This document shows, one piece after another, positions 2,743 through 20,246 of a stretch of DNA of 64,000 nucleotides. Within the stretch, counting starts at the first letter, position 1, and the number at the start of each line of letters is the position of its first letter. A model generated the notes under the pieces. The model was not told the origin of the DNA. It saw only the letters and a program-made list of their open reading frames with translations, and did not search any database. This stretch comes from Spirochaetia bacterium (GTDB taxonomy: Bacteria; Spirochaetota; Spirochaetia; CADAEX01), in the NCBI GenBank assembly GCA_963662265.2, contig CAXXHA010000010.1:160001-224000 (forward strand), written 5' to 3'. Made by a program: the position numbers and the translations under genes.

Positions 2743-3543
2743 CTATAACGGGCTCTTCACCCTCTTTGATACAGGGTCTGCAAGGTTTATATAGATCATT
2801 GTTGTCTTGACCGATTTATGCCCCAGAAGATCCTTAACTGTCTTGATATCAATCCCGGCCTCTATCAGGTGCGTGGCGAAACAATGCCTGAGAGTATGGC
2901 AGGTTGCACTTTTCTGAATCAAACTCTTATTGAGAGCATTCTCGAATATTTTCTGGACCGTCCTTACAGAATATTTCTTCCCTGAAATTGTCCTGAAAAC
3001 ATAATCAGAAGCATTTCTCCCTGCAGTAAGCTGTCTTAAAGATTCTGAATACTTTTCCGAAAGAAGAGTAATCCTGTCCTTGTTCCCCTTGGAATCCCTT
3101 ATCTTAAGCGATAAGTCATTGAAATTAATATCCCTTATTTTTATTCTGCAGACCTCACTCACACGGAGACCGCTGCCGTAAAGAAGGGAGATAATAAGCT
3201 GATGCTTTTTGTTCTCAATATTTCCTAGAAGCTTAAGGACCTCCTCCCTTGAAAGAATATCGGGAAGCCTTTTCCTTGTTCTTACCCTGTCAAGCTTATA
3301 AGGACAGGGCTTGTCCAGTACAAGAGTATAAAACAGCTTTATCGCTGACCAGGCAAGCCTTCTCTGCTCACTCGAACTCTCTTCATTTTCAAGAAAAAGA
3401 GCAATCCTCCTTTCAGGATCAAAATCAGTTTTCCGGGAATATTCAAGAAAATGCTTCAGATGACCCGTATAAATCCTTACAGTATTTTTCGAATAATTCC
3501 GGTTCTTAAGCTCCCTTGTAAAATCTTCAAGATAATTTTTCAT
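2743..3543 (-). CDS. IntI-like tyrosine recombinase lacking the IntI-specific insertion (266 aa from the RBS-supported ATG)
   Basis: N-terminal RNYSKNTVRIY SAM-like domain; catalytic GLRVSE, SKGNKDR, HTLRH, LGH, TMIY; IntI-like C-terminal KSPL; only ~64 aa between catalytic K and HxxR. Confidence 0.92.
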   Translation of the reverse strand: MKNYLEDFTRELKNRNYSKNTVRIYTGHLKHFLEYSRKTDFDPERRIALFLENEESSSEQRRLAWSAIKLFYTLVLDKPCPYKLDRVRTRKRLPDILSREEVLKLLGNIENKKHQLIISLLYGSGLRVSEVCRIKIRDINFNDLSLKIRDSKGNKDRITLLSEKYSESLRQLTAGRNASDYVFRTISGKKYSVRTVQKIFENALNKSLIQKSATCHTLRHCFATHLIEAGIDIKTVKDLLGHKSVKTTMIYINLADPVSKRVKSPL

Positions 3544-3590
3544 GAAAAACGACCCCCTAGTATGTATAACAAGGGAAAAAGTAATTCTGC

Positions 3591-3619
3591 TTGAATTATA
3601 CACCCGCAGACTTTAAAAT
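3591..3619 (+). promoter_or_regulatory. Pc-like promoter facing the cassette array
   Basis: TTGAAT-17 bp-TAAAAT, ending ~25 bp before the first GTT; a divergent TATAAT (3595-3600, - strand) could serve the integrase. Confidence 0.55.
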
Positions 3620-3647
3620 TATCATGCAATACAGACAATTATAGTTA
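3619..3647 (+). other. Putative attI-like primary site: direct repeat copy 2, then ATA, then first GTTA (3644-3647)
   Basis: The first GTTA of the array is not preceded by a spacer hairpin; lies between the integrase start and cassette C0. Confidence 0.55.
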
Positions 3648-3866
3648 TCGTAAATGACAGGCCTTTGGAAATTTAGAAAGTCATTGATTCTTGACTTCTT
3701 TCTTCATGGCAAGGAACACAGCTGTATAAATTCAATTGTGAATTATGATGCTAATTATTGAAATATTAAGAATAGTTAAAATGCCGAGAATTAAATTTGA
3801 AGAAGCCATGAAGAAATTCTGACTTACATTGATTTGTAGATCTTGAAGCCTGTCACTCCCGATAAC
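3644..3866 (+). mobile_element. Cassette C0, no ORF of 60 aa or more
   Basis: Ends GTTATCGTAAATGACAGGC / GCCTGTCACTCCCGATAAC are inverted repeats (16/19); internal 12-bp IR at 3699-3710 / 3805-3816. Confidence 0.8.
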
Positions 3867-4026
3867 AGAGAATACCCGGTTCAGGCATAAGTAGTAAAAA
3901 GTATAGGGCTTAACTGCCGTTCACCCAAAATGTCGGAGCTTTTCTTGTTGCGTGTAAAATCTGGTAGGTATATGATTATTTTAATACGTGGAGAATCCGA
4001 CATCTTCGGATATTCTCAGAACGTTA
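3863..4026 (+). repeat. Spacer family A (attC-like), copy 1, 164 bp
   Basis: TAACAGAGAATACCCG...TGTCGGA...TCCGACA..CGGATATTCTCAGAACGTTA; homologous to 5035-5199 and 13663-13824. Confidence 0.9.
3948..3976 (+). promoter_or_regulatory. Putative sigma70 promoter inside spacer A copy 1
   Basis: TTGCGT-17-TATGAT; equivalent at 5121-5149 and 13746-13774. Confidence 0.55.
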
Positions 4027-4098
4027 AGTGCAATTCTTTGCTTAATATATTTTTTCCTCGCCATCCATGGCTCGGATTTAGAAAAGGAGTATTTCAAA

Positions 4099-4965
4099 AT
4101 GAAAAAAATTATTATTTATTGTTTAGCACTGTTTTTATTATTTTCATGTGCTAATAATGAATTTAATGTAGAACTTGGTATTGATGCAAACTTCATTGAG
4201 AATGATTTAAAAATTACAGGATCAACAAATCTTCCGGATGGTGCAATGATTTCATTAAATCTTAAACCACTATATGAAGAAGAAGTTTCTATTAAAGATG
4301 GAAAAATTGAACATACATTCTCTTTTAATGGAGATGCTATACCTGATGGAGATTATACACTAGAAGCAATATTTATTCCTACTCAAAACGAATCACCAAA
4401 ATTAAAAAATATGATTCTAATTGAAAATGAAAATGTATATGAAAAAGATGGAATAAAATATTATTATATCGGAAATAATTTTAATATAAACAAAGTAGTT
4501 AAAAATAAAGAGCTAAAAAATTTAATAAACAGAAAAGTTCCATATGAAAAATGGAATGATTGGGGAAATCCTGAAACTCTTGAACAAACTAACAATATTT
4601 TTTGGGCAGCATATCTCGAGAAAGCTGATATTTCTTTTATATCAAAAAAAGAGAATGATAAAATCATTTTTGCATGTAGAGGAAAAGAAAAACTAGAAAA
4701 ATATTTTACTGATCGTCAAAATAATATTGAAATTGGATTTTCTCTTTGGGATGGTTCGCATAAAAAACTTACAGAATTAATCAAACAAAGTATGAATGAC
4801 GCAAAAAGTTATGAACATGTTAAAACTGTTTACTGGGATAAAGGAGATCATTTAATAGTTAAAACAGATTTTAGGGGTGCAAATGTTTTTGGAGGTATCG
4901 TCTTAGATTCTGTTACTGCTAAGACATCTATTGATGGTGAGATCTTAGAAATAATTTCAGATTAA
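4099..4965 (+). CDS. Lipoprotein of unknown function (cassette C1, 4023-5038)
   Basis: AAGGAG RBS then MKKIIIYCLALFLLFSC signal and lipobox; the ORF-track start at 3988 lies inside the spacer. Confidence 0.8.
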   Translation: MKKIIIYCLALFLLFSCANNEFNVELGIDANFIENDLKITGSTNLPDGAMISLNLKPLYEEEVSIKDGKIEHTFSFNGDAIPDGDYTLEAIFIPTQNESPKLKNMILIENENVYEKDGIKYYYIGNNFNINKVVKNKELKNLINRKVPYEKWNDWGNPETLEQTNNIFWAAYLEKADISFISKKENDKIIFACRGKEKLEKYFTDRQNNIEIGFSLWDGSHKKLTELIKQSMNDAKSYEHVKTVYWDKGDHLIVKTDFRGANVFGGIVLDSVTAKTSIDGEILEIISD

Positions 4966-5034
4966 TTTTTTACTGCCAGAAAGTACATCCCTGTACTTTC
5001 TGGAATTTATTAAAATTCAGCAAAGAACAGCACT

Positions 5035-5199
5035 TAACAGAGAATACCACGGTTCAGGCTTAAGCAGTAGAAGCATGTAGCAAAACAGCCGTTCACCCAA
5101 AATGTCGGGACTTTTTATTGTTGCAGGTGGAATCTGTTGGGTATAAGATTAATTAAATATCTGGAGCATCCGACATCTTCGGGTATTCTCAGAACGTTA
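5035..5199 (+). repeat. Spacer family A, copy 2, 165 bp
   Basis: Same terminal IR and internal motifs as copy 1; TTGCAG-17-TAAGAT at 5121-5149. Confidence 0.9.
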
Positions 5200-5431
5200 T
5201 GTACAATGAGCCCGACAAGAGGAAGACGCCCGGACCTCCGGCCGACGGGCGAAGAGATAATATATATATGTTATATCGAAAGAAGGAGTAAAAATGAGAT
5301 TGAAGGCATTAATATTAGAGAACTTCCGAGGCTATTCTGGAGTAAATTTAATTAATTTTGAAAAAGACTGGAAATGGCAAGTCATTTTCCCCACATTTAG
5401 GAAATTAAAAATCCCCCACCTGCAGAAAAAA

Positions 5432-6172
5432 TTATACCCCCTTTTTCTCCTGAATTCTATATGAATCTCCCTCAAGGGAGAAAACATGCGCATGATGTAA
5501 AAGCCTATCAAGCATTGCTGTTGTCATGATTTCATCACCCATCATTTCAGACCACTGATCAAAACCTTTATTTGAAGTAATTATTACTGACGATCTTTCA
5601 TAGAGTTCGCTGATAAGATTAAAAAAAAGATTGGCCTCTTTTCTGTCGATAGGCGTATAGCCTATTTCATCAATAATTAGTAACGAAGATCTGAGAATCC
5701 TGTTTATTCTGAATGAACTTGATCTCATAGTTTCCATTGTTTTCAACAGTTTTATTAGTGAAGTTATCCTTTCAAAACAGACAGTGTATCCGGCTTCAAT
5801 TGCCTTGTACCCGAGAGCAATTGATAGATGTGTTTTCCCAAGGCCGGGAGGTCCAAAGAACATGATATTTTCAGATTTATCTATCCACCTGAAATCCTTG
5901 AGATTATTTAACTGTTCTTCAGTTATCCCTTTTATTCTTGAAAAATTGAATGTCTCAAGTTCCTTAATTACAGGAAAATGGGCACCTGTAAGATTTCTAT
6001 GAAGACGTCTTTCATTTCTGAAATGTACTTCTTCTGTAAGAAGGATGCTTAAAAAATCAAGATGAGATATTTTCTCCTTTGTTGCTTTTTCAAGTGCCTC
6101 ATCAAGATTAACAGATATTCCTTTAAGCTTTAGACTATCAAGTATTCCTGTACAGTAATCAAAACAGCTCAT
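5432..6172 (-). CDS. istB: IS21 helper ATPase
   Basis: GPPGLGKTHL Walker A, LLIIDEIGY, TSN, LDRLLHH, GDSYR. Confidence 0.95.
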   Translation of the reverse strand: MSCFDYCTGILDSLKLKGISVNLDEALEKATKEKISHLDFLSILLTEEVHFRNERRLHRNLTGAHFPVIKELETFNFSRIKGITEEQLNNLKDFRWIDKSENIMFFGPPGLGKTHLSIALGYKAIEAGYTVCFERITSLIKLLKTMETMRSSSFRINRILRSSLLIIDEIGYTPIDRKEANLFFNLISELYERSSVIITSNKGFDQWSEMMGDEIMTTAMLDRLLHHAHVFSLEGDSYRIQEKKGV

Positions 6173-7731
6173 AAAGCACCTCCTAAAAGACTTACAAGTG
6201 AGGTGTAGTAACTTAAATCCCTTTTCTTTACTTCTATGTTTTTATTCTCATGTTTTACAGCTTTTATTCCTGTAAGAAGCTGTGGCAGAATATCCGGATA
6301 ATTTTCAGTTTCACAGCTTCTTACATAAAGATAAGACTCTTCAAAATTCCTTGCAGATAGTGTTCCGTTTTCAATGCATAAATCTGCAGTTTTTGCTATT
6401 AACTTATCATCAGGATTTGAGTTTATGAAAGCATAAAGCTCGCGCTGCTGATCTCTGTAATACCTGCTGTATTTTTTGTAATTCTGATCAACATATTGTT
6501 TCCATGAGTTACTGCTAAATCTGTTCTTTAATTTTTTGATAACTTCATCGGGCTTGGAATCATAATTCCTGAAATGATTATGTTTGGTTATTTTTTTCCC
6601 CTTTATCGGTGAGATTTTGTGCCTGGCAATCTCTTCTCCATCTATTTTGTCATAGATAAAAAGGTCTGTATCTGTTTGGTAAATCCAGACAGTTTTTTTT
6701 CTGAACCTGTTAGGGACAGAGTAAAATGAAGATGAAACACTTATCAATGATTTACTATTTACTTCCCTTGATTCTTTATTTATGATGCTTTCCCTTCTGA
6801 AAATAGACGGCTTTAATTTTTTAAAATGTGGAATCTCTTTAAGCAAAGCTTCTTGAGGAATTATTCCAGTTGCCTGGCATATTTTACCGTTAGCTCTTCT
6901 TGAAAGCCAATTATTTAATGCCTCCTGTATTTGATCAAAGGATGTGAAATGTCTTGCTGAAAAGAAACTGCTTTTGATGAATTTCACAAAGTTTTCGACT
7001 TTACCTTTGCTCTCAGGGTCTGCTTTTCTGCAGACATACATCTTAAACCCCTGCTCATCCTTGAAGGCTTTAAATTCTTTTGTATACTTAATATCTCCGC
7101 TGTTTTCTTTAACAACCATGACTTTGTCCTGATCAATCACGATTTCTTCAGGTACCCCTCCTATTATTTCAAAGGTATCAAGTAAATGATTTATCACATC
7201 TATGGATTTAAACGGCCTCTTCTGTACTGCTGCATACTTGAATCTGCTTACAGATAGAATGACTCCAAAGATATATACTTTCTCACCGGTTTCTATTTCA
7301 GTTTCTCCGAAATCAAGCTGTAGTTGTTTTCCATGTGGAAGTTCTTCAACCGGTGTATAGATTCTCTTGTATTCGTAATTATCTACTTCTCCTGTTTTCT
7401 TTAAGAAAATGAGATAATTTCTCAAAGTCCTTTCAGTGCCGGGAAGTTCTCCATATTTTTCTTCAAGAACATCATAGATTGATGAAGTGTATATTTTATT
7501 GTTATTTAAATTAAAAATATTCAGTATTTCATCTTTGAAAGGAGCAAAAATCTTTTCCTTTTCTACACTGTTTATCTGGTATTCAAGATACTCTGCTTCC
7601 GACATTTCAAAGTATTTTCTAACTGTTTTTCTGTCGATTTTTAATTCTCTGGATATTTTCCTTTTTGAATATCCTCTATTCTTGAAAACTCTTATTTTTT
7701 GGTACATATTCATAGTAATCATTTGAGTCAT
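6169..7731 (-). CDS. istA: IS21 transposase
   Basis: N-terminal HTH (IDRKTVRKY), QLDFG, GGVPEEIVIDQ, SKGKVE. Confidence 0.95.
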   Translation of the reverse strand: MTQMITMNMYQKIRVFKNRGYSKRKISRELKIDRKTVRKYFEMSEAEYLEYQINSVEKEKIFAPFKDEILNIFNLNNNKIYTSSIYDVLEEKYGELPGTERTLRNYLIFLKKTGEVDNYEYKRIYTPVEELPHGKQLQLDFGETEIETGEKVYIFGVILSVSRFKYAAVQKRPFKSIDVINHLLDTFEIIGGVPEEIVIDQDKVMVVKENSGDIKYTKEFKAFKDEQGFKMYVCRKADPESKGKVENFVKFIKSSFFSARHFTSFDQIQEALNNWLSRRANGKICQATGIIPQEALLKEIPHFKKLKPSIFRRESIINKESREVNSKSLISVSSSFYSVPNRFRKKTVWIYQTDTDLFIYDKIDGEEIARHKISPIKGKKITKHNHFRNYDSKPDEVIKKLKNRFSSNSWKQYVDQNYKKYSRYYRDQQRELYAFINSNPDDKLIAKTADLCIENGTLSARNFEESYLYVRSCETENYPDILPQLLTGIKAVKHENKNIEVKKRDLSYYTSLVSLLGGAL

Positions 7732-9749
7732 TCCTGGTAGTTTTTGTCGTGATTACATACTAAGGTTTGACTCTTTTTTTTCCTATAGGGTGGGGAATTT
7801 TATTTTCCATCCTATGGGGATTTCATGTTACCATTTCCAAAGACCTAACATCTTTTATAGGAAAGAATGATAGTGGTAAGTCATCAATTCTTGAAGCTCT
7901 TGAGATATTTTTTAATAGTAAAGTTATTAAAATTGATGGTGATGATAAATTTGTACGTTCATTAGAAAATATTGTGAATATTGGTTGTGTTTTTACGGAT
8001 CTTCCAGAAAAAGTCATTATTGATGAAACTAATGAGACATCATTTATAGATGAATATCTTACAAATGAAAATGAGGATTTGGTTGTTTTAAAGAGATTTA
8101 AAATACAGAAAACTGCAAGTAAACCGGAAACATTTATAATAGCAAATCATCCTAGTAAAACTGGTTATGACGACTTACATAGTTTAAAAATCGGCGAATT
8201 AAAGAAGAGAGGAAAAGAATTAGGTATTAAAGATACCGTAGAAGATCAGAGAATTAGTGCTCATTGGAGAAAAGCGATTTGGTCTTCAACTGATAATTTG
8301 GAAATACAAAAATCTGAAATTGAAATTACACAATTAAGCACAGAATCAAAAAAATTATATACAAGAATAAGTGAAGCAATGCCAACATTTGCTCTTTTCC
8401 GATCAGATAGAGAAAGTAGTGACTCTGATCCCGAAGCGAAAGACCCTATGCAATTAGCAGTAAATGAAGCAAAAAAAACTTATGAAGCTCAAATTAATGA
8501 ATTACAAGAGAAAATAGAAAAAAGTGTTTTCGAGGTTGCAGAAAGAACGCTAGAAAAAATGAATGAAATGGATCCTTCTTTAGCTAATGAATTGAACCCA
8601 AGATTAAAAGAAACACCAAAATGGAGTTTTAGTTTTACAATTGATGGTGATGAAAATATTCCAATTAATAAGAGAGGTAGTGGGGTCAGGAGACTTGTTC
8701 TTTTAAATTTCTTTAGAGCAGAAGCTGAAAGAAAGAAAATTCAAAATCATTCTCCTGATGTAATATATGCAATTGAAGAACCTGAAACATCTCAGCATCC
8801 GAATTATCAGCAATTATTGATTGATTCATTGATAGCATTATCACAAAATGATAATTGTCAGGTTTTATTAACAACACATGTTCCAGCATTGGCAGAAAGA
8901 TTAGAAATTAACTCTATTAGATTTATTGAGAAAATCGGATTAGGTGAAATTAAAGTTCATATGCATAATGATTATGTTTTAGAATTAGCTACAGAAAGTT
9001 TAGGGATAATGCCTGAAAAAGAAATATCTTTAGCCAATAAAGTTATATTAGTTGAAGGTCATAGTGATATAACATTTTTGAATAAAATTAGTGAAGAATA
9101 TAAGAATGCGGGAGAAATAACGTCAACATTAAGTGATTCAAAAATATATCCAATACCTATTGGTGGATGCGGGAATCTTAAACATTGGATAACCAAACGC
9201 ATAATAGATAAAATGGGAATAGAATATTTTATTTTAATGGATTCAGATTTAGGAGATCCAGTAAATAATTCTAGAAACATTACTAAAATAAATGAAATTA
9301 ATACAAATGGTCAAATCGGATATTTAACAAATAAACGAGAACCTGAGAACTATATTGATCCAGATTTATTGAAAACAAAGTATGATAAAGATATTAGATA
9401 CACTAACACTTGTGATGCGAAAAAAATAATTGGAAAAGAATTAACAATTAGACCAAATGATGTTCTTGAGTTTATATGGCCACATATGGAATATCAGCAT
9501 ATGAAAAAAATGGCGAAATATGGTGATAAAGATGAATTCAAAGAGTGGATGGATGCGTTCTTAGAATAATGATAATATGAATATTCTAGCTAAGAAGATT
9601 ATAATGGTGAAGAATCCAAACCTCTGAAATAAAGACAAATAGAGAATGTAATTACTTTTTACAAATAGTATTGCTGACGATATTTTTAAGAATAGCTTAA
9701 ATATCTGGTAGAATACGTTCAATAACAATTAAATAAATGGTATAATTTT

Positions 9750-11546
9750 ATGATGGAAACGAGTCTTTCAGTTCTTATTGAAGATTTATCAGTCTCAGCA
9801 AAGAAATATGAAAATGAATATAACGATGATGAGATGCTTACATTTGCTATTTCATTTTGTCAGAGATTAATATCAACATATTGGCAGATTAATATCTCTG
9901 ATACAAAATATTCAATTACTCCGTATAATTCTGAGCTATATGGATATCTGAAAGGGCAACCAATAATTATTGCTGATCAAATCGCACAGTTATTATCTGC
10001 AATGCCAAATAAGGATGCTGGTTTCTTTATTGGAAATATTTATACATCATTACTTCCGAAGAATGTCAGGTCAAAAAACGGCGCTTATTACACACCTCCA
10101 ATACTCGTACAAAGATTATTAACATCTATTGATAACTATAGATTTGATTGGATTAATAGTAAAATATTGGATCCTTCATGTGGTGGAGCTGCATTTCTTA
10201 CAAGTATATCCAGATTTATTATTGAAAAATATAAACATGAATTATCAGCAGATGATTTATTTTCCTTTATTGAAAAAAACATACAAGGGTATGAAATTGA
10301 TCCTTTTGCAGCATGGATCTCACAAACATTGTTGGAATTTGAATTATATGATCTATATCTCAAAGTAAATAAAAGAATAAAAAAAATCATTTCTGTAACT
10401 AATTCCCTTGAGGAAAATTACGACAAGAATTTTGACCTTATCATAGGAAATCCCCCTTATGGAAAAGTAACAATTGAAAAAAACTTAAGAGAGAAATTCA
10501 GTAATAGCGTATATGGACATGCCAATCTTTATGGATTATTTACAGATTTAGCATTAAATCTTTTAAATGAAAATGGATATATAGCCTATGTTACTCCAAC
10601 TTCGTTTTTGGGTGGAAATTATTTTAAGAATTTAAGAAAACTTTTAGGAGAAAATTCTCCTTTAGTTTCTATTGATTTCATAAAAGATAGAAGTGGCGTT
10701 TTTAGTGATGTTCTTCAAGAAACAGCACTAGCAATATATAAAAAATCAAAATTTGTAAAAAAAGTTGAAATATCTGAATTATCAACTACAAAAAATCTTG
10801 ATTCCTTATCAATTATAAAAATTGGAAGTTTGCTAGTTAATCAAAATACAGAAAAACCCTGGCTTATTCCAAGAGAAAAAGATCAATTATCGTTATATAA
10901 GAATATTTCTTCCTTCGAGTATACTTTACGGGACTATGGATTTAAGGTCCGTACTGGACAACTTGTATGGAACAGACACAAGGAACAATTATCAAGTTCA
11001 AAAAGAAACTCTTATCCTTTAATATGGGCCGAATCCATATTAAGAAATGGAAATTTTGAATTTAAATATACAAAGAAGAATCATTTCCCATACTTTAAAT
11101 TGGAAAGAAAACAAAATTATTTACTCACAAATAAAGAATGTATTATATTACAGCGAACAACATCTAAAGAACAAAGTAGAAGATTAATATCTTCAATACT
11201 TCCAAATGAATTTATTAGTCAATATGGTGGTGTAGTTATTGAAAACCATATTAATATTATAGAACAGAATGAAGAAACAGTTTTAGATTTAGTTACACTT
11301 AATATCTTGTTAAATTCAATAGCAATAGATAGAATTTTTCGTTGTATTAATGGCAGTGTAGCCGTTTCTGCTTATGAGTTAAATTCAATACCATTTCCAT
11401 CCCCAGAAAAGATTTTGAATCTAAAAAAATTCTTAATTAAAAATGATAAACGAAGCTCAATAGAAGAATATATTCTAGATATTTATGGAGGCAATATTGA
11501 TGAGTCAACTTCCTACAGTTCAATCGATACAAGACAAACTGGATAA
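9750..11546 (+). CDS. N6-adenine DNA methyltransferase (Eco57I/BsuBI-PstI-like)
   Basis: GAYYTP, ILDPSCGGAAFL, IIGNPPY. Confidence 0.9.
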   Translation: MMETSLSVLIEDLSVSAKKYENEYNDDEMLTFAISFCQRLISTYWQINISDTKYSITPYNSELYGYLKGQPIIIADQIAQLLSAMPNKDAGFFIGNIYTSLLPKNVRSKNGAYYTPPILVQRLLTSIDNYRFDWINSKILDPSCGGAAFLTSISRFIIEKYKHELSADDLFSFIEKNIQGYEIDPFAAWISQTLLEFELYDLYLKVNKRIKKIISVTNSLEENYDKNFDLIIGNPPYGKVTIEKNLREKFSNSVYGHANLYGLFTDLALNLLNENGYIAYVTPTSFLGGNYFKNLRKLLGENSPLVSIDFIKDRSGVFSDVLQETALAIYKKSKFVKKVEISELSTTKNLDSLSIIKIGSLLVNQNTEKPWLIPREKDQLSLYKNISSFEYTLRDYGFKVRTGQLVWNRHKEQLSSSKRNSYPLIWAESILRNGNFEFKYTKKNHFPYFKLERKQNYLLTNKECIILQRTTSKEQSRRLISSILPNEFISQYGGVVIENHINIIEQNEETVLDLVTLNILLNSIAIDRIFRCINGSVAVSAYELNSIPFPSPEKILNLKKFLIKNDKRSSIEEYILDIYGGNIDESTSYSSIDTRQTG

Positions 11547-12582
11547 AATATTTCCTCAGGGTTTAGAAAACAGAGGTTATTTGACTCGAGAAATGGCTGC
11601 CAAGACAATATTTGTTATGATTTATTCAACAGCAGTTGAAGGAACAGATATTTGGATTAGACCTGATCAAATTACAAAAATGACTGATAAGCAAGCAGCC
11701 ATTACCGATATTGATAAAAGAGAAGAATGGTATGAAATGACACTTCGTCCTGGAGCTATGAAGGATATTAAAGATCGATGGTATGCTGCAAATACAAGAG
11801 AACCTATTAGAGATGAAACATTAAGATACGGTCTGATAGTGTATAATGCGGTAATAGAGCGCGCAGGTTTACCTACAACATCTTCAAAACCAAGATATGC
11901 TCTACAACGGGAATTCTATGAATTATTTATGGTTGACGAAAATGCAGATGATTTTATTAAAAATTGGCAAGATAAATATTTATCTGCTGAATCATTAGCT
12001 CGGGTAAAATTATTAGGTCAATCAAAACAATCAAAAACTAATAATGAAAATATTTTGATTGATCTGCCAGATGGTCAGAGAAGAAAAATGCTTCCTGGAC
12101 CAAGTTCATTTCTTACAAAAGCAACTGTAGAATTATTCTGTAAATCTTTTTTAAAAAATCCCGTTGTAATTTTCATTAGTGAATCAGGGAATAAAGTAGT
12201 ACTTAAAGATGATGAATTAGCAAAATCAATTGGATTTAATATTCCAGCGGAAAAAAGTTTACCAGATCTGATAATCGCTGATCTTACTGATGACAATACG
12301 CTAATATATTTTATTGAAATAGTTGCAACAGACGGCCCAATTAACAGAAAAAGAAAAGATGATTTGCTGAAAATTGTAGCTGAATCTTCATTTAAAAGAG
12401 AGAATGTATTTTTTATGACGGTATTTGAAGATAGGAATTCAGCACCCTTTAAGAAAAATATATCTTCGATAGCACCAAATACACTTATTTGGTTTGCCTC
12501 AGAACCTGAATTTATAATGATCTGGAATTCTTTAAAAAATTATAAAATTGCAGATATGTCTAGTTTCATAAATGAAACATAA
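11500..12582 (+). CDS. BsuBI/PstI-family type II restriction endonuclease
   Basis: YAANTREPIRDETLR, PTTSSKP.Y, PD...IEIVATDGP, WFASEP; GGAGG RBS at 11487. Confidence 0.88.
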   Translation: MSQLPTVQSIQDKLDKIFPQGLENRGYLTREMAAKTIFVMIYSTAVEGTDIWIRPDQITKMTDKQAAITDIDKREEWYEMTLRPGAMKDIKDRWYAANTREPIRDETLRYGLIVYNAVIERAGLPTTSSKPRYALQREFYELFMVDENADDFIKNWQDKYLSAESLARVKLLGQSKQSKTNNENILIDLPDGQRRKMLPGPSSFLTKATVELFCKSFLKNPVVIFISESGNKVVLKDDELAKSIGFNIPAEKSLPDLIIADLTDDNTLIYFIEIVATDGPINRKRKDDLLKIVAESSFKRENVFFMTVFEDRNSAPFKKNISSIAPNTLIWFASEPEFIMIWNSLKNYKIADMSSFINET

Positions 12583-12680
12583 AAAATAGTTTCAGTAGTC
12601 TTGGCTATTTTTTTTAAAGTATAAATGAAGAATCCAGACCTAACTCCGTTGAACGGTCTGGATGTCGGGCTCAAAGCACA

Positions 12681-12756
12681 TAACAGCGAATATGCGGTTT
12701 CGCTTCGCTTTACCCAAACTGGCCTTTGGCCAGCTTCGCATATTCGCGGAACGTTA
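12681..12756 (+). repeat. Spacer family B (short attC-like, 76 bp)
   Basis: TAACAGCGAATATGCG...CGCATATTCGCGGAACGTTA; homologous to 17086-17163. Confidence 0.88.
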
Positions 12757-12834
12757 TGAATAATTCCTGACCAAGAAGAGACCTTTATACTCGCCATCCA
12801 TGGCTCGTGAAGAAATAGAAAATCTTATATTGTA

Positions 12835-13164
12835 TTAAACACTTAGTATTTTATGATCTTCCAGAATATTACCATCCATTTCTAACAACTGCAAAAATCT
12901 AGAAGCTGGTCCTTGAGGTTTGTTTCTACCGGATTCCCAGGCTTCAACCGTTTTTACAGATACACCAAGTGCTTCTGCGAAAATAGTCTGTGATAAATTC
13001 AATGATAACCGGATTTGTTTTATTTTGGATGCATCATATTTTGGAATTGGAGAAATACTGACTTTCCTTCTTTTTACTGAAGGTAATTTACCTTTACTAT
13101 ATTCAAGAGATTCATTGAGTCCGGAGATAATTGAGTTATAATAATTTTTATCATCGTTTTTCAT
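12835..13164 (-). CDS. XRE-HTH antitoxin (HigA-like) (cassette C3, 12753-13666)
   Basis: LSQTIFAEALGVSVKTVEAWESGRNKPQGPA; directly downstream of the toxin. Confidence 0.88.
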   Translation of the reverse strand: MKNDDKNYYNSIISGLNESLEYSKGKLPSVKRRKVSISPIPKYDASKIKQIRLSLNLSQTIFAEALGVSVKTVEAWESGRNKPQGPASRFLQLLEMDGNILEDHKILSV

Positions 13165-13514
13165 TTCTGCCCTCCGTTCGTACGTAAATTATTCTTAATC
13201 TGATCTATCAAAGACTTAATATTGTTTTTTTCACCTTTCGTAAGACTTTGCTTTTCACTTTTTCTAAAACAGGCAATCATATGAATCTGTTCAAATGATG
13301 CAAAATCAACATATAGTGTTCTTACGCCACCACTTTTACCTTTTCCTGGAACTGACCATCGAAGCTTTCGCAAGCCCCCTGTTCCTTGAATCATTTTTCC
13401 AGCTTCAGGATTCTCACAAAGCAATATCTCAAGATCTTTGAGATCATCATCTGTCAAATTGGCATCTGCCCACTGTTTTTCGAATGTTGGCATATACACA
13501 AATTCTCGTGTCAT
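13161..13514 (-). CDS. RelE/HigB-family toxin
   Basis: NPEAG..IQGTGGLRKLRW...GKGKSGGVR; toxin-first operon. Confidence 0.88.
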   Translation of the reverse strand: MTREFVYMPTFEKQWADANLTDDDLKDLEILLCENPEAGKMIQGTGGLRKLRWSVPGKGKSGGVRTLYVDFASFEQIHMIACFRKSEKQSLTKGEKNNIKSLIDQIKNNLRTNGGQK

Positions 13515-13519
13515 GATTA

Positions 13520-13549
13520 ATTATTACACCCTATTCAATAGGGTGTCAA
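13520..13549 (-). promoter_or_regulatory. TA promoter with palindromic operator
   Basis: TTGACA, 17-18 bp, TAATAAT on the - strand; perfect IR ACACCCTATT-C-AATAGGGTGT (13526-13546) between the boxes. Confidence 0.75.
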
Positions 13550-13662
13550 GAGTTGAAAATACAAATATTCTAACCTTTAGTTATACTTTTACCTTTTACT
13601 GTCTCAAAAGGACTTCCATGTCCTTTTGAGAATGAAATATCTTAATGGTCAGGAACTATACA

Positions 13663-13824
13663 TAACAGAGAATACCCGGTTCAGGCATAAGCAGTAAAAG
13701 TTCGGGGCTTAACAGCCTTTCACCCAAAATGTCGGAACTTTCTTGTTGCAGGTGGAAACTGGAGGGTATATGATTAATCAAATATCTGAGGCATCCGACA
13801 TCTTCGGGTATTCTCAAAACGTTA
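13663..13824 (+). repeat. Spacer family A, copy 3, 162 bp
   Basis: Homologous to copies 1 and 2; TTGCAG-17-TATGAT at 13746-13774. Confidence 0.9.
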
Positions 13825-13881
13825 TGTTCAATTTTTGGTCTAAAATATGTTTAAAAGGTAATTATCCAATAAGGAATCATT

Positions 13882-14550
13882 ATGGTAAAAGAAATGTACT
13901 TGGAATTAACAGGCGTCAATGGAAGACAAATTCAAAATACATATTGGTCTAATGTTGATAATCCATCAAAGATTGTCATTTTCTTTTCCGGTTATCGATA
14001 TCCTACTGAAGCCCCATTATTTCATTTTCTAAAAATACATTTTTTATCAAAAAATTGGGCAGTTTTAACTCTAGATTATAGGTATAATGAAGATTCAGTT
14101 TTTTTGAAGTTATCTGACCCTGAACAAATGAATTATTTGAATACTGAAGCTTTACTTATGAAAAAAAAATTAGAAGAAAATCTTAATTTCGAGCAGTATT
14201 GCTTTATTGCGAAATCTCTTGGCACAACCATTCTATATAAAATGTTAGAAAATGATTTTATTTTCATGAAAGATTTAAAGAATCAATTTGTATGGCTTAC
14301 TCCTGCAGAGTCTAATAGGAAGATATCTGATTTTATTTTAAAAAATACAATTTCTTCGATTTATGTGATTGGAGATGATGATCCATATTATGATGAGGAC
14401 ATCATTTCAAAATTAAGAGATAATTCTTCTTGCTTATGTACAATTGTTTCTGATGCAGGGCATATCTTTAATCATAAAGAAAATCTAGACTTAACCATGC
14501 AGAATAATTTTAATGTCATTAGGTATCTAATTGAGAAGATTAATGTTTAA
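13882..14550 (+). CDS. Alpha/beta hydrolase-fold protein (cassette C4, 13821-14585)
   Basis: AKSLGT nucleophile elbow, GDDDP, AGH. Confidence 0.75.
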   Translation: MVKEMYLELTGVNGRQIQNTYWSNVDNPSKIVIFFSGYRYPTEAPLFHFLKIHFLSKNWAVLTLDYRYNEDSVFLKLSDPEQMNYLNTEALLMKKKLEENLNFEQYCFIAKSLGTTILYKMLENDFIFMKDLKNQFVWLTPAESNRKISDFILKNTISSIYVIGDDDPYYDEDIISKLRDNSSCLCTIVSDAGHIFNHKENLDLTMQNNFNVIRYLIEKINV

Positions 14551-14650
14551 GATACAACCAGATGAGACCAAAAACTGAACATAACAGCGAATATGGCATT
14601 CCCCCAAAACTGTAGACACTTGATATACTTAGAAACTAAGGAGTATTAAA

Positions 14651-14938
14651 GTGCCAAAGAGTCCCTACACAGAAGAATTTAAAGACGAAATATTAAAGCA
14701 AATAATGGAAGAAGAACACAGTGTTCTTGAAGTATCAAAAGCAACAGGAATAAGTGACGTTACTCTTTATAACTGGCTTAGAAAGGCCGGGTGGAAATCC
14801 GGGGAGTCTCGAGAAAAGAAAAAATTAACAGAAGCAGAAAAGGAAAACAGAGAATTAAAAGCAGAGATCAGAAAGCTTAAGATGGAGCGTGATATCTTAA
14901 AAAAGGCCGCAGCGTACTTTGCGAAGGAGTCCCAGTAA
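14651..14938 (+). CDS. IS3 OrfA
   Basis: YTEEFK, HTH, ERDILKKAAAYFA; A-AAA-AAG shift site at 14899-14905. Confidence 0.9.
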   Translation: MPKSPYTEEFKDEILKQIMEEEHSVLEVSKATGISDVTLYNWLRKAGWKSGESREKKKLTEAEKENRELKAEIRKLKMERDILKKAAAYFAKESQ

Positions 14939-14985
14939 AGTACGCTTTTATTCGGGACAACAGAAAAGCGTTTCCAATTCGCCCT

Positions 14986-15795
14986 ATGTGCAGGATATTA
15001 AAAGTTAATCCATCAGGATTTTATCGGTGGTTAAAAACACCAGAATCTCCTAGAACAATAGAAAATAAAAAAGTGACAGAACTAATCCGTTTTTACTGGG
15101 AAGAAAGCGGTCAAGTATATGGAAGTCCAAATATACATGAGGATCTAAAAGAAGCAGGTTATAGCTACGGTGTTAATCGGGTTGCTCGTTTGATGAGAGT
15201 AGCTGGAATAAAAGGTGCTTACAGACGGAAACGGCATCATGTACCTTGGGTTCCTGGAGAAATTTACCAGAAGAATACTTTGAATAGAGAATTTTCTGTT
15301 GCTGAGCCAAATCAAGCTTGGTGTACTGATATAACATATATCCGAACTTATGAAGGCTGGTTATATCTGGCAGTAGTAATTGATCTATTTAACAGAGGAG
15401 TTGTTGGCTGGTCGATGAAGAATCATCAGAAAGCAATTATTGTTATGGATGCTTTGTTTATGGCAGTAAAAAGAAGAAGACCTACAAAGTCTGTTCTTAT
15501 CCATTCTGATCAAGGGTGTCAGTTTACAAGTAAGGATTGGGAGGATTTTTGTGAGGCCCACTCTTTGGAAATTAGCATGAGTAGAAGAGGTAATTGTTGG
15601 GATAATTCTGTAGTTGAATCATTCTTTTCAAATCTTAAAAGAGAAAGAATCAGGAATAAAATTTATAAAACCAGAGAGGAGGCAAGAAAAGATATTTTTA
15701 ATTATATTGAAATGTTTTACAATACAAAAAGACGGCATGGTCATTTAGGAAAGCGAAGCCCTGCTGATTTTGAAGATAAGTTTTCATCAGATTAA
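14986..15795 (+). CDS. IS3 OrfB (DDE transposase, probably fused to OrfA by -1 frameshift)
   Basis: WCTDITY, HSDQGCQF, GNCWDNSVVESFF. Confidence 0.92.
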   Translation: MCRILKVNPSGFYRWLKTPESPRTIENKKVTELIRFYWEESGQVYGSPNIHEDLKEAGYSYGVNRVARLMRVAGIKGAYRRKRHHVPWVPGEIYQKNTLNREFSVAEPNQAWCTDITYIRTYEGWLYLAVVIDLFNRGVVGWSMKNHQKAIIVMDALFMAVKRRRPTKSVLIHSDQGCQFTSKDWEDFCEAHSLEISMSRRGNCWDNSVVESFFSNLKRERIRNKIYKTREEARKDIFNYIEMFYNTKRRHGHLGKRSPADFEDKFSSD

Positions 15796-15822
15796 AGTGT
15801 CTACAGAATCAGGGGAATGCCA

Positions 15823-15984
15823 GTTGAAAACTTTAGTGCTGTCGATAGGACATACGATGAAGTAATTAAAAAAGGGGCAATATCAATTCTTAAGCCAACA
15901 ACAGAACCTTGGGGACAAAGAACGTGTTATGTGGCAGATCCTGAAGGAAACTTAATTGAAATTGGATCATTTCAGAAAGATTGA
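15823..15984 (+). pseudogene. 5'-truncated VOC/glyoxalase-family gene
   Basis: Frame directly after the IS3 end reads VENFSAVDRTYDEVIKKGA...EPWGQRTCYVADPEGNLIEI. Confidence 0.8.
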
Positions 15985-15997
15985 TAGAGGGGGATAT

Positions 15998-16345
15998 ATG
16001 TCAACTACACCGGATTTTATTGAATTTGTCTTTGATCAGATTGATAATAAATGGAATAAACGATATAGGAAAATGTTTGGAGAATATATGGTTTACGTAA
16101 ATGACAAACCGATATTGCTTGTATGTGATAATATAGTTTATGCAAAAAAATTGGATTGCATAAAGCCATTTATTAAGGAAAAGGAATGTGGATTTCCATA
16201 TAATGGAGCAAAAGAACATTATATAGTTGATGTTGAAGATGATGAACTTTTTAGTAAAATTATCGAGGAGCTTGAAAAAGTAATTAAAGTACCTGTGAAA
16301 AAGAATAAAAGACGAATAAGTAACGTACAGACTGAAAGATATTAG
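15998..16345 (+). CDS. TfoX N-terminal domain-like protein
   Basis: MSTTPDFIEFV...YRKMFGEYMVY...LVCDN; GAGGGG RBS. Confidence 0.75.
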   Translation: MSTTPDFIEFVFDQIDNKWNKRYRKMFGEYMVYVNDKPILLVCDNIVYAKKLDCIKPFIKEKECGFPYNGAKEHYIVDVEDDELFSKIIEELEKVIKVPVKKNKRRISNVQTERY

Positions 16346-16423
16346 TGAAAATGTGAAGCCAAAAATATCCATGTATTTGGCAGAGGATATAATCAATAAT
16401 TTCTAAAAACAAAAACTGGGTTA

Positions 16424-16499
16424 CAACAAGAAATATACGATTCTGCTTCACTCCAACCAAATACGGAGTTGCCACACTTCGCATATTCCTGAAACGTTA
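16424..16499 (+). repeat. Degenerate family B spacer
   Basis: CAACAAGAAATATACG...CGCATATTCCTGAAACGTTA. Confidence 0.75.
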
Positions 16500-16526
16500 C
16501 AGGCAACTACATTCTGAGGAGACTTA

Positions 16527-17078
16527 ATGATAAACAGTGAACGACTTACTTTGAGAAACATCGAAGAGAGAGATATTACTTTTCTTGAAGAAATCTTACT
16601 CGATAAGCGTTTAATGAAATTTATACCACTCCCAATTTCGAATCATGATCAGGTTGAATCATTTATGAAATCATTGATTAAAGCCCAATGTTTACAAAAG
16701 AGAAAACAGTATTTTTTAATAATTGAAGCGAATGATTCAAAGCAGCAAATTGGTACGATAACTGGAAAAATTATTAGCGAAGAAATACAAGATGGTATCG
16801 GTATTCTGGGATATACAATTTTGAAAGAATATTGGGGAAATGGATATGCTACTGAAGCAACAAATACTATTATTTCCTTTTTTCTGAATGAATTGAAACT
16901 TCATAGACTCGAAGCATCAAGTGTAGCTGACAACAAATCATCAGAGAATGTGTTAAAAAAAGTAGGAATGAAATATGAAGGGACTAAACGTAAGTCTCTG
17001 AATATTGATGGAATCTGGTATGATGAATTACAATACGGGATTCTCAGAAACGATATTTCTGCGAACTTTGAATTGTAG
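16527..17078 (+). CDS. RimJ/RimL-family GNAT (cassette 16496-17089)
   Basis: SERLTLR, LGY..LKEYWGNGYATEA, N..S..VLKKVGM. Confidence 0.88.
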   Translation: MINSERLTLRNIEERDITFLEEILLDKRLMKFIPLPISNHDQVESFMKSLIKAQCLQKRKQYFLIIEANDSKQQIGTITGKIISEEIQDGIGILGYTILKEYWGNGYATEATNTIISFFLNELKLHRLEASSVADNKSSENVLKKVGMKYEGTKRKSLNIDGIWYDELQYGILRNDISANFEL

Positions 17079-17085
17079 CTTCCTA

Positions 17086-17163
17086 TAACAGCGCATGTGC
17101 GGTGCTGCATTCGGCTTTACGCAAATTGGCCTTTGACCAACATCGCATATTCGCAATACGTTG
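17086..17163 (+). repeat. Family B spacer
   Basis: TAACAGCGCATGTGCG...TTGGCCTTTGACCAACATCGCATATTCGCAATACGTTG. Confidence 0.85.
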
Positions 17164-17289
17164 TACATCATATCAAAATATTATCGTCATTAGCGGCGAT
17201 TAAAGGCAAAAAAGATTTTAAAGAGAAAGGCGATGTTTTTGAAGTAAAAGACATTTCCTGGATAGAAAATATCAGAGGAAAAATATTAT

Positions 17290-17829
17290 ATGAAAAGATA
17301 TATTGCCTTGTTGCGGGGAATTAATATAAGTGGAAAAAACAAGATATCCATGTCTGAATTAAAGAATGGATTTACAGAACATGGTTTTACAGAGGTTGTG
17401 ACATATCTTAATAGTGGTAATGTGATCTTTTCATGTATTAATAATAATGAAGCTGTTCTTTCAAATGAAATAAAGTTAATGATAAAAGAAAGATTTGATT
17501 TAAACATACCGGTTTTTGTTGTCTTACAAGAAAAATTAGAAGAACTATTAAATCATGCTCCCGGTTGGTGGGGAAATGATAACAAAGAAATATATGATAA
17601 TCTCATTTTTATGATGCCTCCTTTATCTTATGAGGAGTTTTATGATGTAATCGGCAATCCTAAAGCGGAATATGAAAAAGTGCATAATTACAGCAATGTT
17701 ATTTTCTGGTCATTTATACGGAAAGATTATCAAAAGACAAATTGGTGGTCAGGGACTGCTGGCTCAAACATAAGTGATAAGATTACAATTCGAACAGCTA
17801 ATACAGTAAGAAAGATAGTGAGTATGTGA
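17290..17829 (+). CDS. DUF1697 family protein
   Basis: YIALLRGINISG.NKI.M.EL...V.TYLNSGNVIF. Confidence 0.85.
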   Translation: MKRYIALLRGINISGKNKISMSELKNGFTEHGFTEVVTYLNSGNVIFSCINNNEAVLSNEIKLMIKERFDLNIPVFVVLQEKLEELLNHAPGWWGNDNKEIYDNLIFMMPPLSYEEFYDVIGNPKAEYEKVHNYSNVIFWSFIRKDYQKTNWWSGTAGSNISDKITIRTANTVRKIVSM

Positions 17830-17879
17830 TATATAGTAGTGAGGTTAATTAAAATCTCAATATTACTTATGGAGAAAGA

Positions 17880-18074
17880 ATGAGAATTGAAAATGTCAGC
17901 AAAAAAGACTATTCACAGTTAATTGAAATATGGGAAACTTCTGTACGTTCAACTCATGATTTCCTGACTGAAAAGGATATTATATCGTTAAGATCTTTAA
18001 TAATTGATAAATATTTTCCTGCTGTTGACCAACTTCCCATATTCGTGAAACGTTATAAGCAATTAATAAATTGA
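17880..18074 (+). pseudogene. 3'-truncated GNAT (YjaB-like) fused to the right half of a spacer
   Basis: IWETSVRSTHDFL N-terminus runs into GTTGACCAACTTCCCATATTCGTGAAACGTTA. Confidence 0.75.
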
Positions 18075-18095
18075 TTAGTTTAAAGGAGTTCTAAT

Positions 18096-18590
18096 ATGAA
18101 AGCTGCATTAATGATAATTGATATGCAAAAAGAATATTTCACTGGTCTTGCAAAAAAATCAATGACCGAAGCATCCGAGTATATAAATGAAGTTTTAGGG
18201 TATTTCAGAGAACGAAAACTGCCTATTGTTTGGGTTCAGGATATTGATAAAAAATGTGGAGTTGTTCCAGATTCAGAAGGTTTTGAAATTATTGATTTAC
18301 TAGAGAAGCAGAATAATGAAATAAGTATTTTCAAAGAATATGGAAATAGTTTTAATAAAACAGAATGTGGAAATATCCTAAAGAAAGAAAATGTCGATGT
18401 AATTGTAATAACTGGATACTGTGCAGAATATTGTGTTTTATCTACATATCGAGGCGCTCAGGATTTGGATTTTACACCAGTCATACTGAAAAAAGGAATT
18501 GCGAGTGGTGATTATCAGAATCTACAATTTATTGAGAAAATCTGTGATACAATTCCCTATAATATAATCAGCAAGATGATTGGAAAATAA
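18096..18590 (+). CDS. Isochorismatase-family cysteine hydrolase
   Basis: ALMIIDMQ, K...NSF, G..AEYCV.ST. Confidence 0.88.
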   Translation: MKAALMIIDMQKEYFTGLAKKSMTEASEYINEVLGYFRERKLPIVWVQDIDKKCGVVPDSEGFEIIDLLEKQNNEISIFKEYGNSFNKTECGNILKKENVDVIVITGYCAEYCVLSTYRGAQDLDFTPVILKKGIASGDYQNLQFIEKICDTIPYNIISKMIGK

Positions 18591-18616
18591 TACTCCCAAG
18601 TACTACTGACTGTTCA

Positions 18617-18703
18617 TAACAGGGGCTATTTACTCCGCCAAGTCGGGCTTCGTGCTGCACCATTTTTGGCCTAAGCCAAACATCACATAACCCAAGAACG
18701 TTA
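18617..18703 (+). repeat. Degenerate spacer
   Basis: TAACAGGGGCTAT...ATAACCCAAGAACGTTA followed by TTGGC-AAT. Confidence 0.75.
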
Positions 18704-18741
18704 TTGGCAATATCCCTTAAGATCAACATGTGAGGAAGATA

Positions 18742-19647
18742 ATGAGAATCAAGCTGGAAAAGCATACGACAAGCATATTACAGGCACTCCTCGTGACTTT
18801 TCTCTGGTCTACATCTTTCATTATCATCAAAAAGGGATTGCTCTCAATACCACCTCTGACATTTGCTGGCCTAAGATACTTTTTTGCATCACTTTGCTTG
18901 TTGCCATTTTCATTTATGCCGCAACGTCAATCTGAAATCCGGAAATTGGGTAAAAATAAATGGGGTAAACTGATTATTTTAGGCATGGTATTCTATGTGT
19001 TTACCCAGGGGATACAATTCATAGGTCTATCACTTCTGCCTTCCACAACTGTCAGCTTAATGCTCAATTTTACTCCTGTAATAGTTATGATACTAAGTGT
19101 CGTATTCATTAATGAAAAACCGGTGAAAAGACAAGTCGCGGGAGTATTCATCTTTGTTGCAGGAGCTCTTGTTTATTTTCTACCTTTATCAAATCTCGGG
19201 GCGCAGTTAATAGGATTGATTGTTATGGCCTTTGGCATTATTTCAAATGCAATTTCATCGGTTTTAGGAAGAAATATAAATCGAGATAAAGAAATTACTC
19301 CGTTTACAATTACATTAATTTCGATGTCATTTGGTTCAATGCTTCTCCTGATTACCGGGCTTGTCATTGAAGGAATACCAAGTATACCACTCCGGTCATG
19401 GATATCTCTGATTTGGTTATCAGTTGTAAATACCGCATTTGCATTTACACTTTGGAACCGATCTCTTCGTCACCTTACAGCAATGAAATCAAGTATCATC
19501 AACGGAACAATGTTGATTCAAATCGCTATATTGGCCTGGATTTTTCTAGGAGAGGGCCTCTCCGGGACCAATATCGGCGGCATGATTATTGCATCAATCG
19601 GTGCAATATTAGTCCAGTTGCGGTATAAAGAGAAGGTAAGCAATTAG
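18742..19647 (+). CDS. DMT/EamA transporter
   Basis: About 10 TM segments, LWSTSF, duplicated EamA pattern. Confidence 0.88.
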   Translation: MRIKLEKHTTSILQALLVTFLWSTSFIIIKKGLLSIPPLTFAGLRYFFASLCLLPFSFMPQRQSEIRKLGKNKWGKLIILGMVFYVFTQGIQFIGLSLLPSTTVSLMLNFTPVIVMILSVVFINEKPVKRQVAGVFIFVAGALVYFLPLSNLGAQLIGLIVMAFGIISNAISSVLGRNINRDKEITPFTITLISMSFGSMLLLITGLVIEGIPSIPLRSWISLIWLSVVNTAFAFTLWNRSLRHLTAMKSSIINGTMLIQIAILAWIFLGEGLSGTNIGGMIIASIGAILVQLRYKEKVSN

Positions 19648-19668
19648 CGGAGACCGGGAGACTATCAA

Positions 19669-19745
19669 GAACAGTGAATATGTGGTTCAGCATTCAGCAT
19701 CTCCCAAAATGCCGTTGACCAACATCGCATATTTACAAAACATTA
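19669..19745 (+). repeat. Degenerate family B spacer (GAAC...ATTA)
   Basis: GAACAGTGAATATGTG...GTTGACCAACATCGCATATTTACAAAACATTA. Confidence 0.75.
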
Positions 19746-19786
19746 TAGTTAATTTTGAATTAAGATTTTAATCAAGGAGTTTTCAT

Positions 19787-20218: not shown

Positions 20219-20246
20219 TAAGCAAACACTTAATTTAAACTTTCAA

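Follow-up and report, generated by a model that had tools for sequence, protein, structure and literature searches.

What are the inverted repeats that open and close each gene cassette in an array of a spirochaete genome, and why do the two repeats of a cassette keep pairing when their sequences differ from one cassette to the next? We address this question for a stretch of 64,000 nucleotides (nt), hereafter 'the window' (contig CAXXHA010000010.1, positions 160,001 to 224,000 of the forward strand), in the 3.77-Mb, 41-contig assembly GCA_963662265.2 of a Spirochaetia bacterium. Window positions 3644 to ~22835 are an integron-type cassette array, and each pair of repeats is probably the outer (R-proximal) stem of the cassette's own attC hairpin, split in two.

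The array is built of imperfect hairpins of the order R''-L''...L'-R' with conserved AAC and GTT triplets. These elements come in two sizes, long (~157 nt between AAC and GTT) and short (~70 nt); three long copies share a mean identity of 85% (alignment A1), and the bottom strand of the elements folds into a hairpin with the R stem at its base and an L stem of 11 base pairs (bp). A covariance model built from eight short attC copies, R1, matches 11 full sites and one partial site in the window and no further site above noise in the rest of the genome. An Rfam scan of window positions 1-26000 returned no family for the long attC core and one chance-level match. Six terminal repeats, with the coordinates and match counts given by the initial annotation of this DNA, run from the G of a GTT triplet (R') to the C of an AAC triplet (R''); their starts, ends and matching positions are as follows:

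3644 / 3866, cassette C0, 16/19
4023 / 5038, cassette C1, 21/24
5196 / 12684, cassette C2, 19/22
12753 / 13666, cassette C3, 19/21
13821 / 14585, cassette C4, 20/21
16496 / 17089, a sixth cassette (GNAT), 13/16

Position 11 is mismatched in all six, as had also been reported: in five, the A of the start faces a G in the reverse complement of the end (top-strand A opposite C), and C2 has A against T. At positions 12-21, the starts of C0 to C4 match their own ends at 9, 9, 10, 10 and 10 of 10 bases, whereas 157 non-own comparisons in the window average 3.35 and reach 7 at most.

The first bases of an integron cassette belong to its own attC. As in all integrons, a crossover at G|TT would fall inside the stem, and insertion would split it: the 3' half (R' plus the following bases) would become the first bases of the cassette, and the 5' half would remain at the cassette end, just ahead of the attC core. 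Every attC in the array would then carry a hybrid R stem, made of the end of the preceding cassette and the start of the following one, and the full stem would be restored only by excision, or by contact between the two ends of a cassette in single-stranded DNA. The initial annotation had likewise held that the stem could form only in an excised circle or by end-to-end pairing. Its description of the repeats as terminal inverted repeats was right about the pairing; what it did not recognise is that they are the known R box, lengthened and split at the integron crossover.

The anatomy of this stem is plain in the arrays. It is ~20 bp long, as against 7 bp for the R box, and has two parts: a 12-bp arm that reads, on the R' strand, G, TTAY, four free bases and AAT; and an outer stem of 8-10 bp with no conserved sequence, the two sides of which covary. 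Each cassette start finds its partner in the cassette's own end and not in the upstream attC; the hybrids standing in the arrays pair less well than own ends do, both at positions 5-9 (2.63 vs 4.01 of 5) and at positions 13-20 (2.46 vs 5.55 of 8). The first cassette of the window is joined to an attI:

3600..3650, plus strand: attI region; cassette 1 starts at the G of GTTATCG, position 3644, and no attC core lies upstream

This first cassette pairs with its own end at 17/21 positions, the next best candidate reaching 12. The same type of attI junction is found in five further arrays (G065a, G011, G020, G015 and G146). Because first cassettes abut non-attC sequence at G|TT in the window and in five arrays, we place the crossover at R' rather than at R'', and G|TT is its presumptive point.

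A 22-bp direct repeat (21/22 identical) at 2686-2707 and 3621-3642 brackets the integrase gene of the window, and its right copy is the left part of attI. As a general component of attI it was rejected, G001 having the attI copy alone.

The pairing of own ends extends well beyond the window. Our sample comprised ten arrays from nine genomes (the window, G001, G011, G015, G020, G058, G065 with two arrays, G084 and G146), the units being the intervals between consecutive R1 matches (129, of which 111 unique); intervals with missed sites or insertions were retained, which lowers the own score. The initial annotation had named beforehand, as decisive, the comparison of own with other partners in related arrays, and there the ends do prefer their own: at positions 13-20 the mean is 5.72/8 matches for own ends and 2.12/8 for other ends. 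At least 7 of these 8 positions match in 56/111 own pairs and in 83/12,210 non-own pairs, and none of 10,000 shuffles (0/10,000; 102 distinct start words) attained the observed own mean, figures that describe the pattern rather than true probabilities. Own matching is high at positions 5-9 and 12-20 and falls to background from position 21. Within one cassette family both arms alter together, a compensatory change; a cross-array search for homologous cassettes gave too few pairs for compensatory changes. R1-type sites occur in 32/151 sampled Spirochaetia genomes.

The suggestion that the stem serves as a per-cassette barcode is unsupported, because different cassettes have identical arms: six consecutive cassettes of G015, 955-4213 bp long, share theirs, as do families in G058 and G084.

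Small recurring cassettes form a group of their own. One of ~283 bp is present in six copies in G001 (L013 2425-6436 and 12426-12709), and one of ~400 bp in at least nine copies in G058 and two in G084; in these cassettes the outer stem is only ~4 bp with a one-base bulge.

Position 11 is the most regular irregularity of the stem. The start base is A in nearly all cassettes, and the top-strand pairs (n = 111) are A opposite C in 86, A opposite A in 14 and Watson-Crick in 4; among the cassettes with an intact outer stem, a Watson-Crick pair occurs in 0/56. On the bottom strand the equivalents are T-G in most cassettes and T-T in 14/111. Because of this T-T minority, the conserved feature is a non-Watson-Crick position and not, as the initial annotation had it, a wobble. 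Nor does the wobble account well for a strand bias: when the arms are folded alone, the median advantage of the bottom strand is just -0.6 kcal/mol, and the top strand is better in 32/108. The likelier role of position 11 is to mark the site, by shape or for recognition, rather than to add stability. The remaining transition mismatches point to the bottom strand in 29 cases vs 11, and G015 has an additional base beside position 11 on the R'' arm.

Folding energies bear on which form of the cassette carries the stem. For 108 cassettes, the cassette end and attC were joined either to the cassette's own start (the circle) or to the next start (the array) and folded with DNA parameters. On the bottom strand the circle junction is stabler than the array site in 90/108, with a median of -9.4 kcal/mol; within the circle, the bottom strand is stabler than the top in 99/108 (median -4.4 kcal/mol). 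Cassettes C0-C3 of the window reach -32 to -36 kcal/mol as circles vs -16 to -23 kcal/mol in the array, a gain of 10-16. The earlier proposal of a folded single-stranded substrate, probably the bottom strand, fits these data and known integron biology, the contribution assigned to the wobble being the part that falls away.

Beside the array lies a recombinase gene, which is the nearest candidate for the acting enzyme:

2743..3603, minus strand: tyrosine recombinase of 286 amino acids (aa), IntI-like, without the IntI-specific inserted domain

This short integrase scores 204.9 bits against NCBIfam TIGR02249 (cut-off 265), in two stretches, 206.1 bits against the XerA-type model (cut-off 220), 154.9 bits against XerC (cut-off 335) and 149.7 bits against XerD (cut-off 330). 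Its catalytic columns are conserved (alignment A3), and a C-terminal SP(L/F) tail is common to short and canonical IntI proteins; IntI (TIGR02249; Protein Data Bank entry 2a3v) is its nearest relative, sharing the catalytic residues. What is missing is a block of ~41-45 residues that corresponds to the IntI-specific domain. In the alignment with 2a3v, query residues 203-214 lie opposite chain residues 189-245, and the distance from the K-box to HxLRH is 64-66 residues in short integrases (64 in the window), compared with 107 in canonical IntI and 78 in a Xer-like protein of the same genome. Among public sequences, the gene comes closest to one on a Spirochaetia bacterium chromosome (82% identity).

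The same arrangement recurs in relatives. The recombinase beside each of 11/11 R1-type arrays examined (the window, G001, G011, G014, G015, G020, G021, G058, G065a, G084 and G146) has no IntI-specific insertion; an IntI with the additional domain next to the array, the usual integron setting, is thus not what is found. These arrays reach up to 34 sites. The short integrase gene is divergent from the cassettes in the window, in G001 and in G065a, and codirectional with them in the others.

A canonical IntI does occur in the genome of the window, as a solitary gene for 406 aa elsewhere (G000 contig C8:77642-78862; L022 15643-16863); it scores 383.6 bits (cut-off 265), is 44% identical to IntI1 and has no R1-type attC in the 36 kb searched around it. 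Canonical IntI genes likewise lie apart from the arrays in G011, G012, G058, G065, G084 and G146, and the gene is broken in G015; such solitary genes recur in relatives whose arrays adjoin the short integrase. Across the 151 genomes of the class, 32 have R1-type sites, 45 a canonical IntI (threshold E 1e-70 or better) and 18 both, leaving 14 with R1-type sites and no canonical IntI at that threshold. One of these 14, G021, is rated 100% complete and has a short integrase beside its array; the ends of one of its cassettes match at 25/26 positions, all except position 11.

A tree places the short integrases and canonical IntI in one clade (100% support in the Shimodaira-Hasegawa-like approximate likelihood-ratio test, SH-aLRT), apart from the Xer-like protein of the same genome, with the canonical IntI clade nested among the short integrases. 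Since short integrases surround that clade, cassette arrays could have been in use before the IntI domain was added. The tree came from a quick search, has a single outgroup and contains several long branches, and a Bacillota homologue whose spacing is long (107 residues) is placed amid the short integrases; for these reasons it does not tell gain of the domain from its loss.

If the adjoining short integrase is the enzyme, the parts described above could work together as follows. The outer stem and the complete arm would make the bottom-strand hairpin of a free cassette a stable, fully formed site for that integrase, and the clamped arm would favour insertion at attI. The hybrid sites in the array, with only a partial arm, would be weak substrates, and the system would be biased towards capture and retention; any such effects on rates, like the identity of the enzyme and the strand it uses, are inferred. 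In order, the folded bottom strand presents the outer stem and then an 11-bp arm with ...TAA at its end; cleavage would come next, before C, and six cleaved-strand bases facing two lead on to the 11-bp L arm. Such a layout would amount to a tyrosine-recombinase site of two arms that carries its own kink. Where classical sites use extrahelical bases to mark the correct strand, these would use position 11 and the lopsided spacer (5 nt vs 1 nt, a 4-nt excess). It is possible, at somewhat less than even likelihood in our judgement, that this is a second kind of integron, run by an IntI-like recombinase in which the IntI domain was lost or never present, and which reads a different structural code: a 12-bp arm with an obligatory odd pair 11, a sequence-free outer stem present only in free cassettes and, on the cleaved strand, an excess of 4 nt.

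Several points weigh against these readings. The sampled genomes are related and not independent, and the tests overstate the support. In 55/111 cassettes the outer stem, scored ungapped, matches at fewer than 7 of 8 positions; some of these 55 reflect missed sites, one-base shifts or one-base bulges, and some are true decay. Within the window, the other seven of the 12 own pairs, which lie farther from the integrase, match at 3-7 of 10 positions (12-21), the distal stems being weaker or decayed; C8-C11 there gain nothing as circles and C12 gains ~2 kcal/mol. Over the whole set, the circle is not stabler in 18/108 cassettes. The arms alone are stabler on the bottom strand in 72 and equal in 4 of 108, and because they give so little, the strand bias comes mostly from the attC core. 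Most array genomes have a canonical IntI at another place, and this could be the enzyme at work. Recombination, circles and strand use are deduced from sequence, and contigs of public sequencing runs gave no circle junction, rare excisions being invisible in contigs; the joints listed from such contigs are mostly repeat breaks or come from other organisms.

Comparison with known systems shows what is shared and what is not. In the account of Loot et al. (2017; PMC5371416), the R box has 7 bp, of which 4 are variable and need not pair in the array; Nivina et al. (2016) describe three unpaired features of classical attC sites; and Escudero et al. (2016; PMC4792948) tie the IntI-specific domain to the single-strand pathway. 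Cury et al. (2016; PMC4889954) report 50 domain-less recombinases beside attC sites, 29 of them with an IntI elsewhere in the genome, and judge these proteins not to be IntI; the few that fall between IntI and Xer adjoin <3 attC sites. The situation of an IntI elsewhere is also seen here; unlike those cases, the short integrase adjoins up to 34 sites and does so in 11 arrays.

Sites of the R1 type share with classical attC sites the imperfect hairpins, the AAC and GTT triplets, the G|TT crossover, the hybrid R boxes and an attI by the recombinase gene; they differ in the ~20-bp stem, the fixed non-Watson-Crick position 11 and the free, covarying outer part. Their spacer is lopsided: among 133 unique sites, the R-L spacer is 1 nt on the R'' side vs 5 nt on the R' side in 100 and 0 vs 4 in 18, and pairing of the 11-bp L arms is ungapped, has no extra base and covers 10-11 of 11 positions in 95/133. 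The classical combination of extrahelical bases with a central unpaired spacer of ~5-6 nt on both arms is thus not what these sites have. By contrast, in class 1 sites and in those of G053, a spirochaete array next to a canonical IntI, the spacers measure 5 and 5-6 nt and the L box has an additional base.

Own-end pairing in those two references is shorter. Seven class 1 cassettes from two plasmids, read by eye with only aadA2 confirmed by script, have unbroken own-end runs of 12, 12, 12, 8, 8, 7 and 4 (the last matching at 10/12 positions), and none of 20. The 13 intervals of G053 have own-end runs of 0-9 and no outer-stem signal at positions 13-20, own ends matching at 2.23/8 and other ends at 2.10/8. 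An own-end arm of up to 12 bp may thus be general; the outer stem and the odd position 11 belong to R1-type arrays alone. In the literature searched, which excluded subscription papers and supplements, neither a ~20-bp split stem nor pairing of own ends past the 7-bp R box is described, and the same goes for a fixed odd position and for arrays of this kind. The long split stem is a lengthened form of a known integron feature, found with an unusual short integrase.

A further likeness is to the sites that CTX-type phages present to XerCD, in which a single-strand hairpin mimics a two-arm recombinase site and one strand is exchanged. The folded site here is similar in having two 11-bp arms separated by 6 nt of the cleaved strand, and its R' arm presumably resembles a Xer-type arm. 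It differs from XerCD/dif in that the recombinase is neither XerC nor XerD, the sites are arrayed with an attI, and the two arms are unlike; moreover, it is a two-arm site only in the fold, with a centre of 6 vs 2 nt.

Among other explanations, the one that departs least from the split attC stem keeps its two halves and changes the state in which they act: own ends would pair not in a free circle but in a single-stranded array (e.g. a lagging-strand template), looping the cassette out and bringing the crossover points together for excision. The own-end stem of ~20 bp is indeed the strongest pairing open to these bases (hybrids reach 2.46/8), and the attC cores are alike enough (85% in A1) for neighbouring L arms to pair (10-11 of 11 in 95/133). 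Yet the two halves lie 0.2-7.5 kb apart and the second site in such a fold is still a hybrid. The present data do not separate that state from the circle; we consider it unlikely. A quite improbable alternative is that the outer stem is unselected, a mere inheritance from a long ancestral attC palindrome. That pairing can be lost is evident from the decayed distal stems of the window, but more than 100 different stem sequences still pair, the match has a sharp edge at position 20/21, compensatory changes occur within one family and position 11 is Watson-Crick in 0/56 intact stems. Neutral decay would not yield this pattern.

Two other readings take the repeats out of the integron altogether or out of DNA. 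Pairing of the 5' and 3' ends of a cassette transcript might stabilise or regulate the message, and both arms would be transcribed where cassette genes lie on the top strand, as most do; we regard this as very improbable because the sense strand has A facing C or A at position 11, the remaining transition mismatches point to the bottom strand (29 vs 11) and the arms of C3 keep their polarity although its genes lie on the opposite strand. No RNA sequencing run was listed as containing the region, which counts neither for nor against this reading. That the cassettes are transposon-like units, with repeats read by a transposase and insertion into a repeated target, might be suggested by terminal inverted repeats of 16-24 bp on each unit, but this is scarcely credible. 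The ends lack a target duplication and the cassettes lack a transposase, the IS21-like and IS3 insertion sequences (IS) being separate insertions with their own ends; the repeats begin precisely at the integron crossover triplets; and the first unit abuts attI beside a tyrosine recombinase gene. Nor do the units fit an IS or a miniature inverted-repeat transposable element, since both of their flanks are attC core, without a duplicated target.

The remaining parts of the window, with open reading frames (ORFs) and Pfam assignments, are as follows:

3644..3866, plus strand: cassette C0, 223 bp; no ORF of at least 60 aa; arms 3644-3662 and 3848-3866
3860..4029, plus strand: attC of C0, long type; R1 match, alignment A1
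4023..5038, plus strand: cassette C1; ORF 3988-4965 without Pfam match; arms 4023-4046 and 5015-5038
5032..5202, plus strand: attC of C1, long type; R1 match, alignment A1
5196..12684, plus strand: cassette C2, 7.5 kb; genes assigned by Pfam; arms 5196-5217 and 12663-12684
5395..7813, minus strand: IS21-like insertion, istA and istB, within the OLD-family gene of C2; Pfam IstB_IS21 and rve
12678..12759, plus strand: attC of C2, short type; R1 84.8 bits, bottom-strand fold
12753..13666, plus strand: cassette C3; RelE-like toxin and helix-turn-helix (HTH) antitoxin, both on the minus strand (Pfam); arms 12753-12773 and 13646-13666
13660..13827, plus strand: attC of C3, long type; R1 match, alignment A1, fold
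13821..14585, plus strand: cassette C4; ORF 13882-14550 without Pfam match; arms 13821-13841 and 14565-14585
14594..15822, plus strand: IS3-family element, inserted in the attC of C4, the remainder of which is missing; Pfam rve and HTH_21
16496..17089, plus strand: GNAT acetyltransferase cassette (Pfam); arms 16496-16511 and 17074-17089
17160..22835, plus strand: distal array with six more attC sites and a partial site at ~18000-18058; last R'' at 22835

The Pfam matches of C2 are an OLD-family ATPase/nuclease and a restriction-modification pair, namely an Eco57I-like methylase and a BsuBI/PstI-type endonuclease. A contig from run X9 joins 5394 to 7814 and gives the empty site of the IS21-like insertion. 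The leader of C2 (5218-5262) is conserved after the stem, and contigs of runs X1 and X5 join other cassette starts to it from 5227. The toxin-antitoxin cassette C3 has a 96.5% identical copy in G001, and the stretch 12750-13827 is near-identical in contigs from two runs that bear the labels of other organisms, where the match sets in at the cassette boundary. The IS3-family element ends in 28-nt inverted repeats (14594-14621 and 15795-15822). R1 attC sites at 16421-16502 and 17083-17166 flank the GNAT cassette; several more GNAT acetyltransferases, an EamA transporter and other small genes (Pfam) are among the contents of the array. At 17880-18058, a truncated acetyltransferase ORF of 64 aa is joined straight to the 3' half of an attC, which looks like a deletion within the array.

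Other sequence features accompany the cassette starts. A 17-nt, partly palindromic motif is identical at window positions 4058-4074 and 12791-12807, at L014 78-94 and at L032 19464-19480; it sits 35-38 nt past the start of some cassettes in three genomes, ~0.02 window copies being expected by chance. In R1-type arrays, the top strand of the cassette start often reads AAGA(G) immediately inward of the outer stem (e.g. window 5217-5226), and a similar purine run stands just before the end stem, in direct orientation and hence without pairing. The same attC architecture (1 vs 5 nt spacer, long L arm) is found near related recombinase genes on a Kapabacteria contig (L007 2288-4232) and on a contig labelled Methanophagaceae archaeon (L008 11129-11216).

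As the split outer stem of each cassette's own attC, the long repeats are a record of selection on the excised form of the cassette: intact stems mark cassettes that are mobile now or were so recently, and decayed stems mark fossil cassettes. The signature ties the start of a cassette to its own end, which locates attI and brings fusions, missed sites and insertions to light. Should the short integrase be the enzyme at work, single-stranded hairpins would be recognised without the IntI-specific domain, arrays filed as attC clusters without an integrase may have an enzyme of their own, and the system would bear on the origin of integrons from Xer-like recombinases. The split stem may be the visible mark of an undescribed type of integron.

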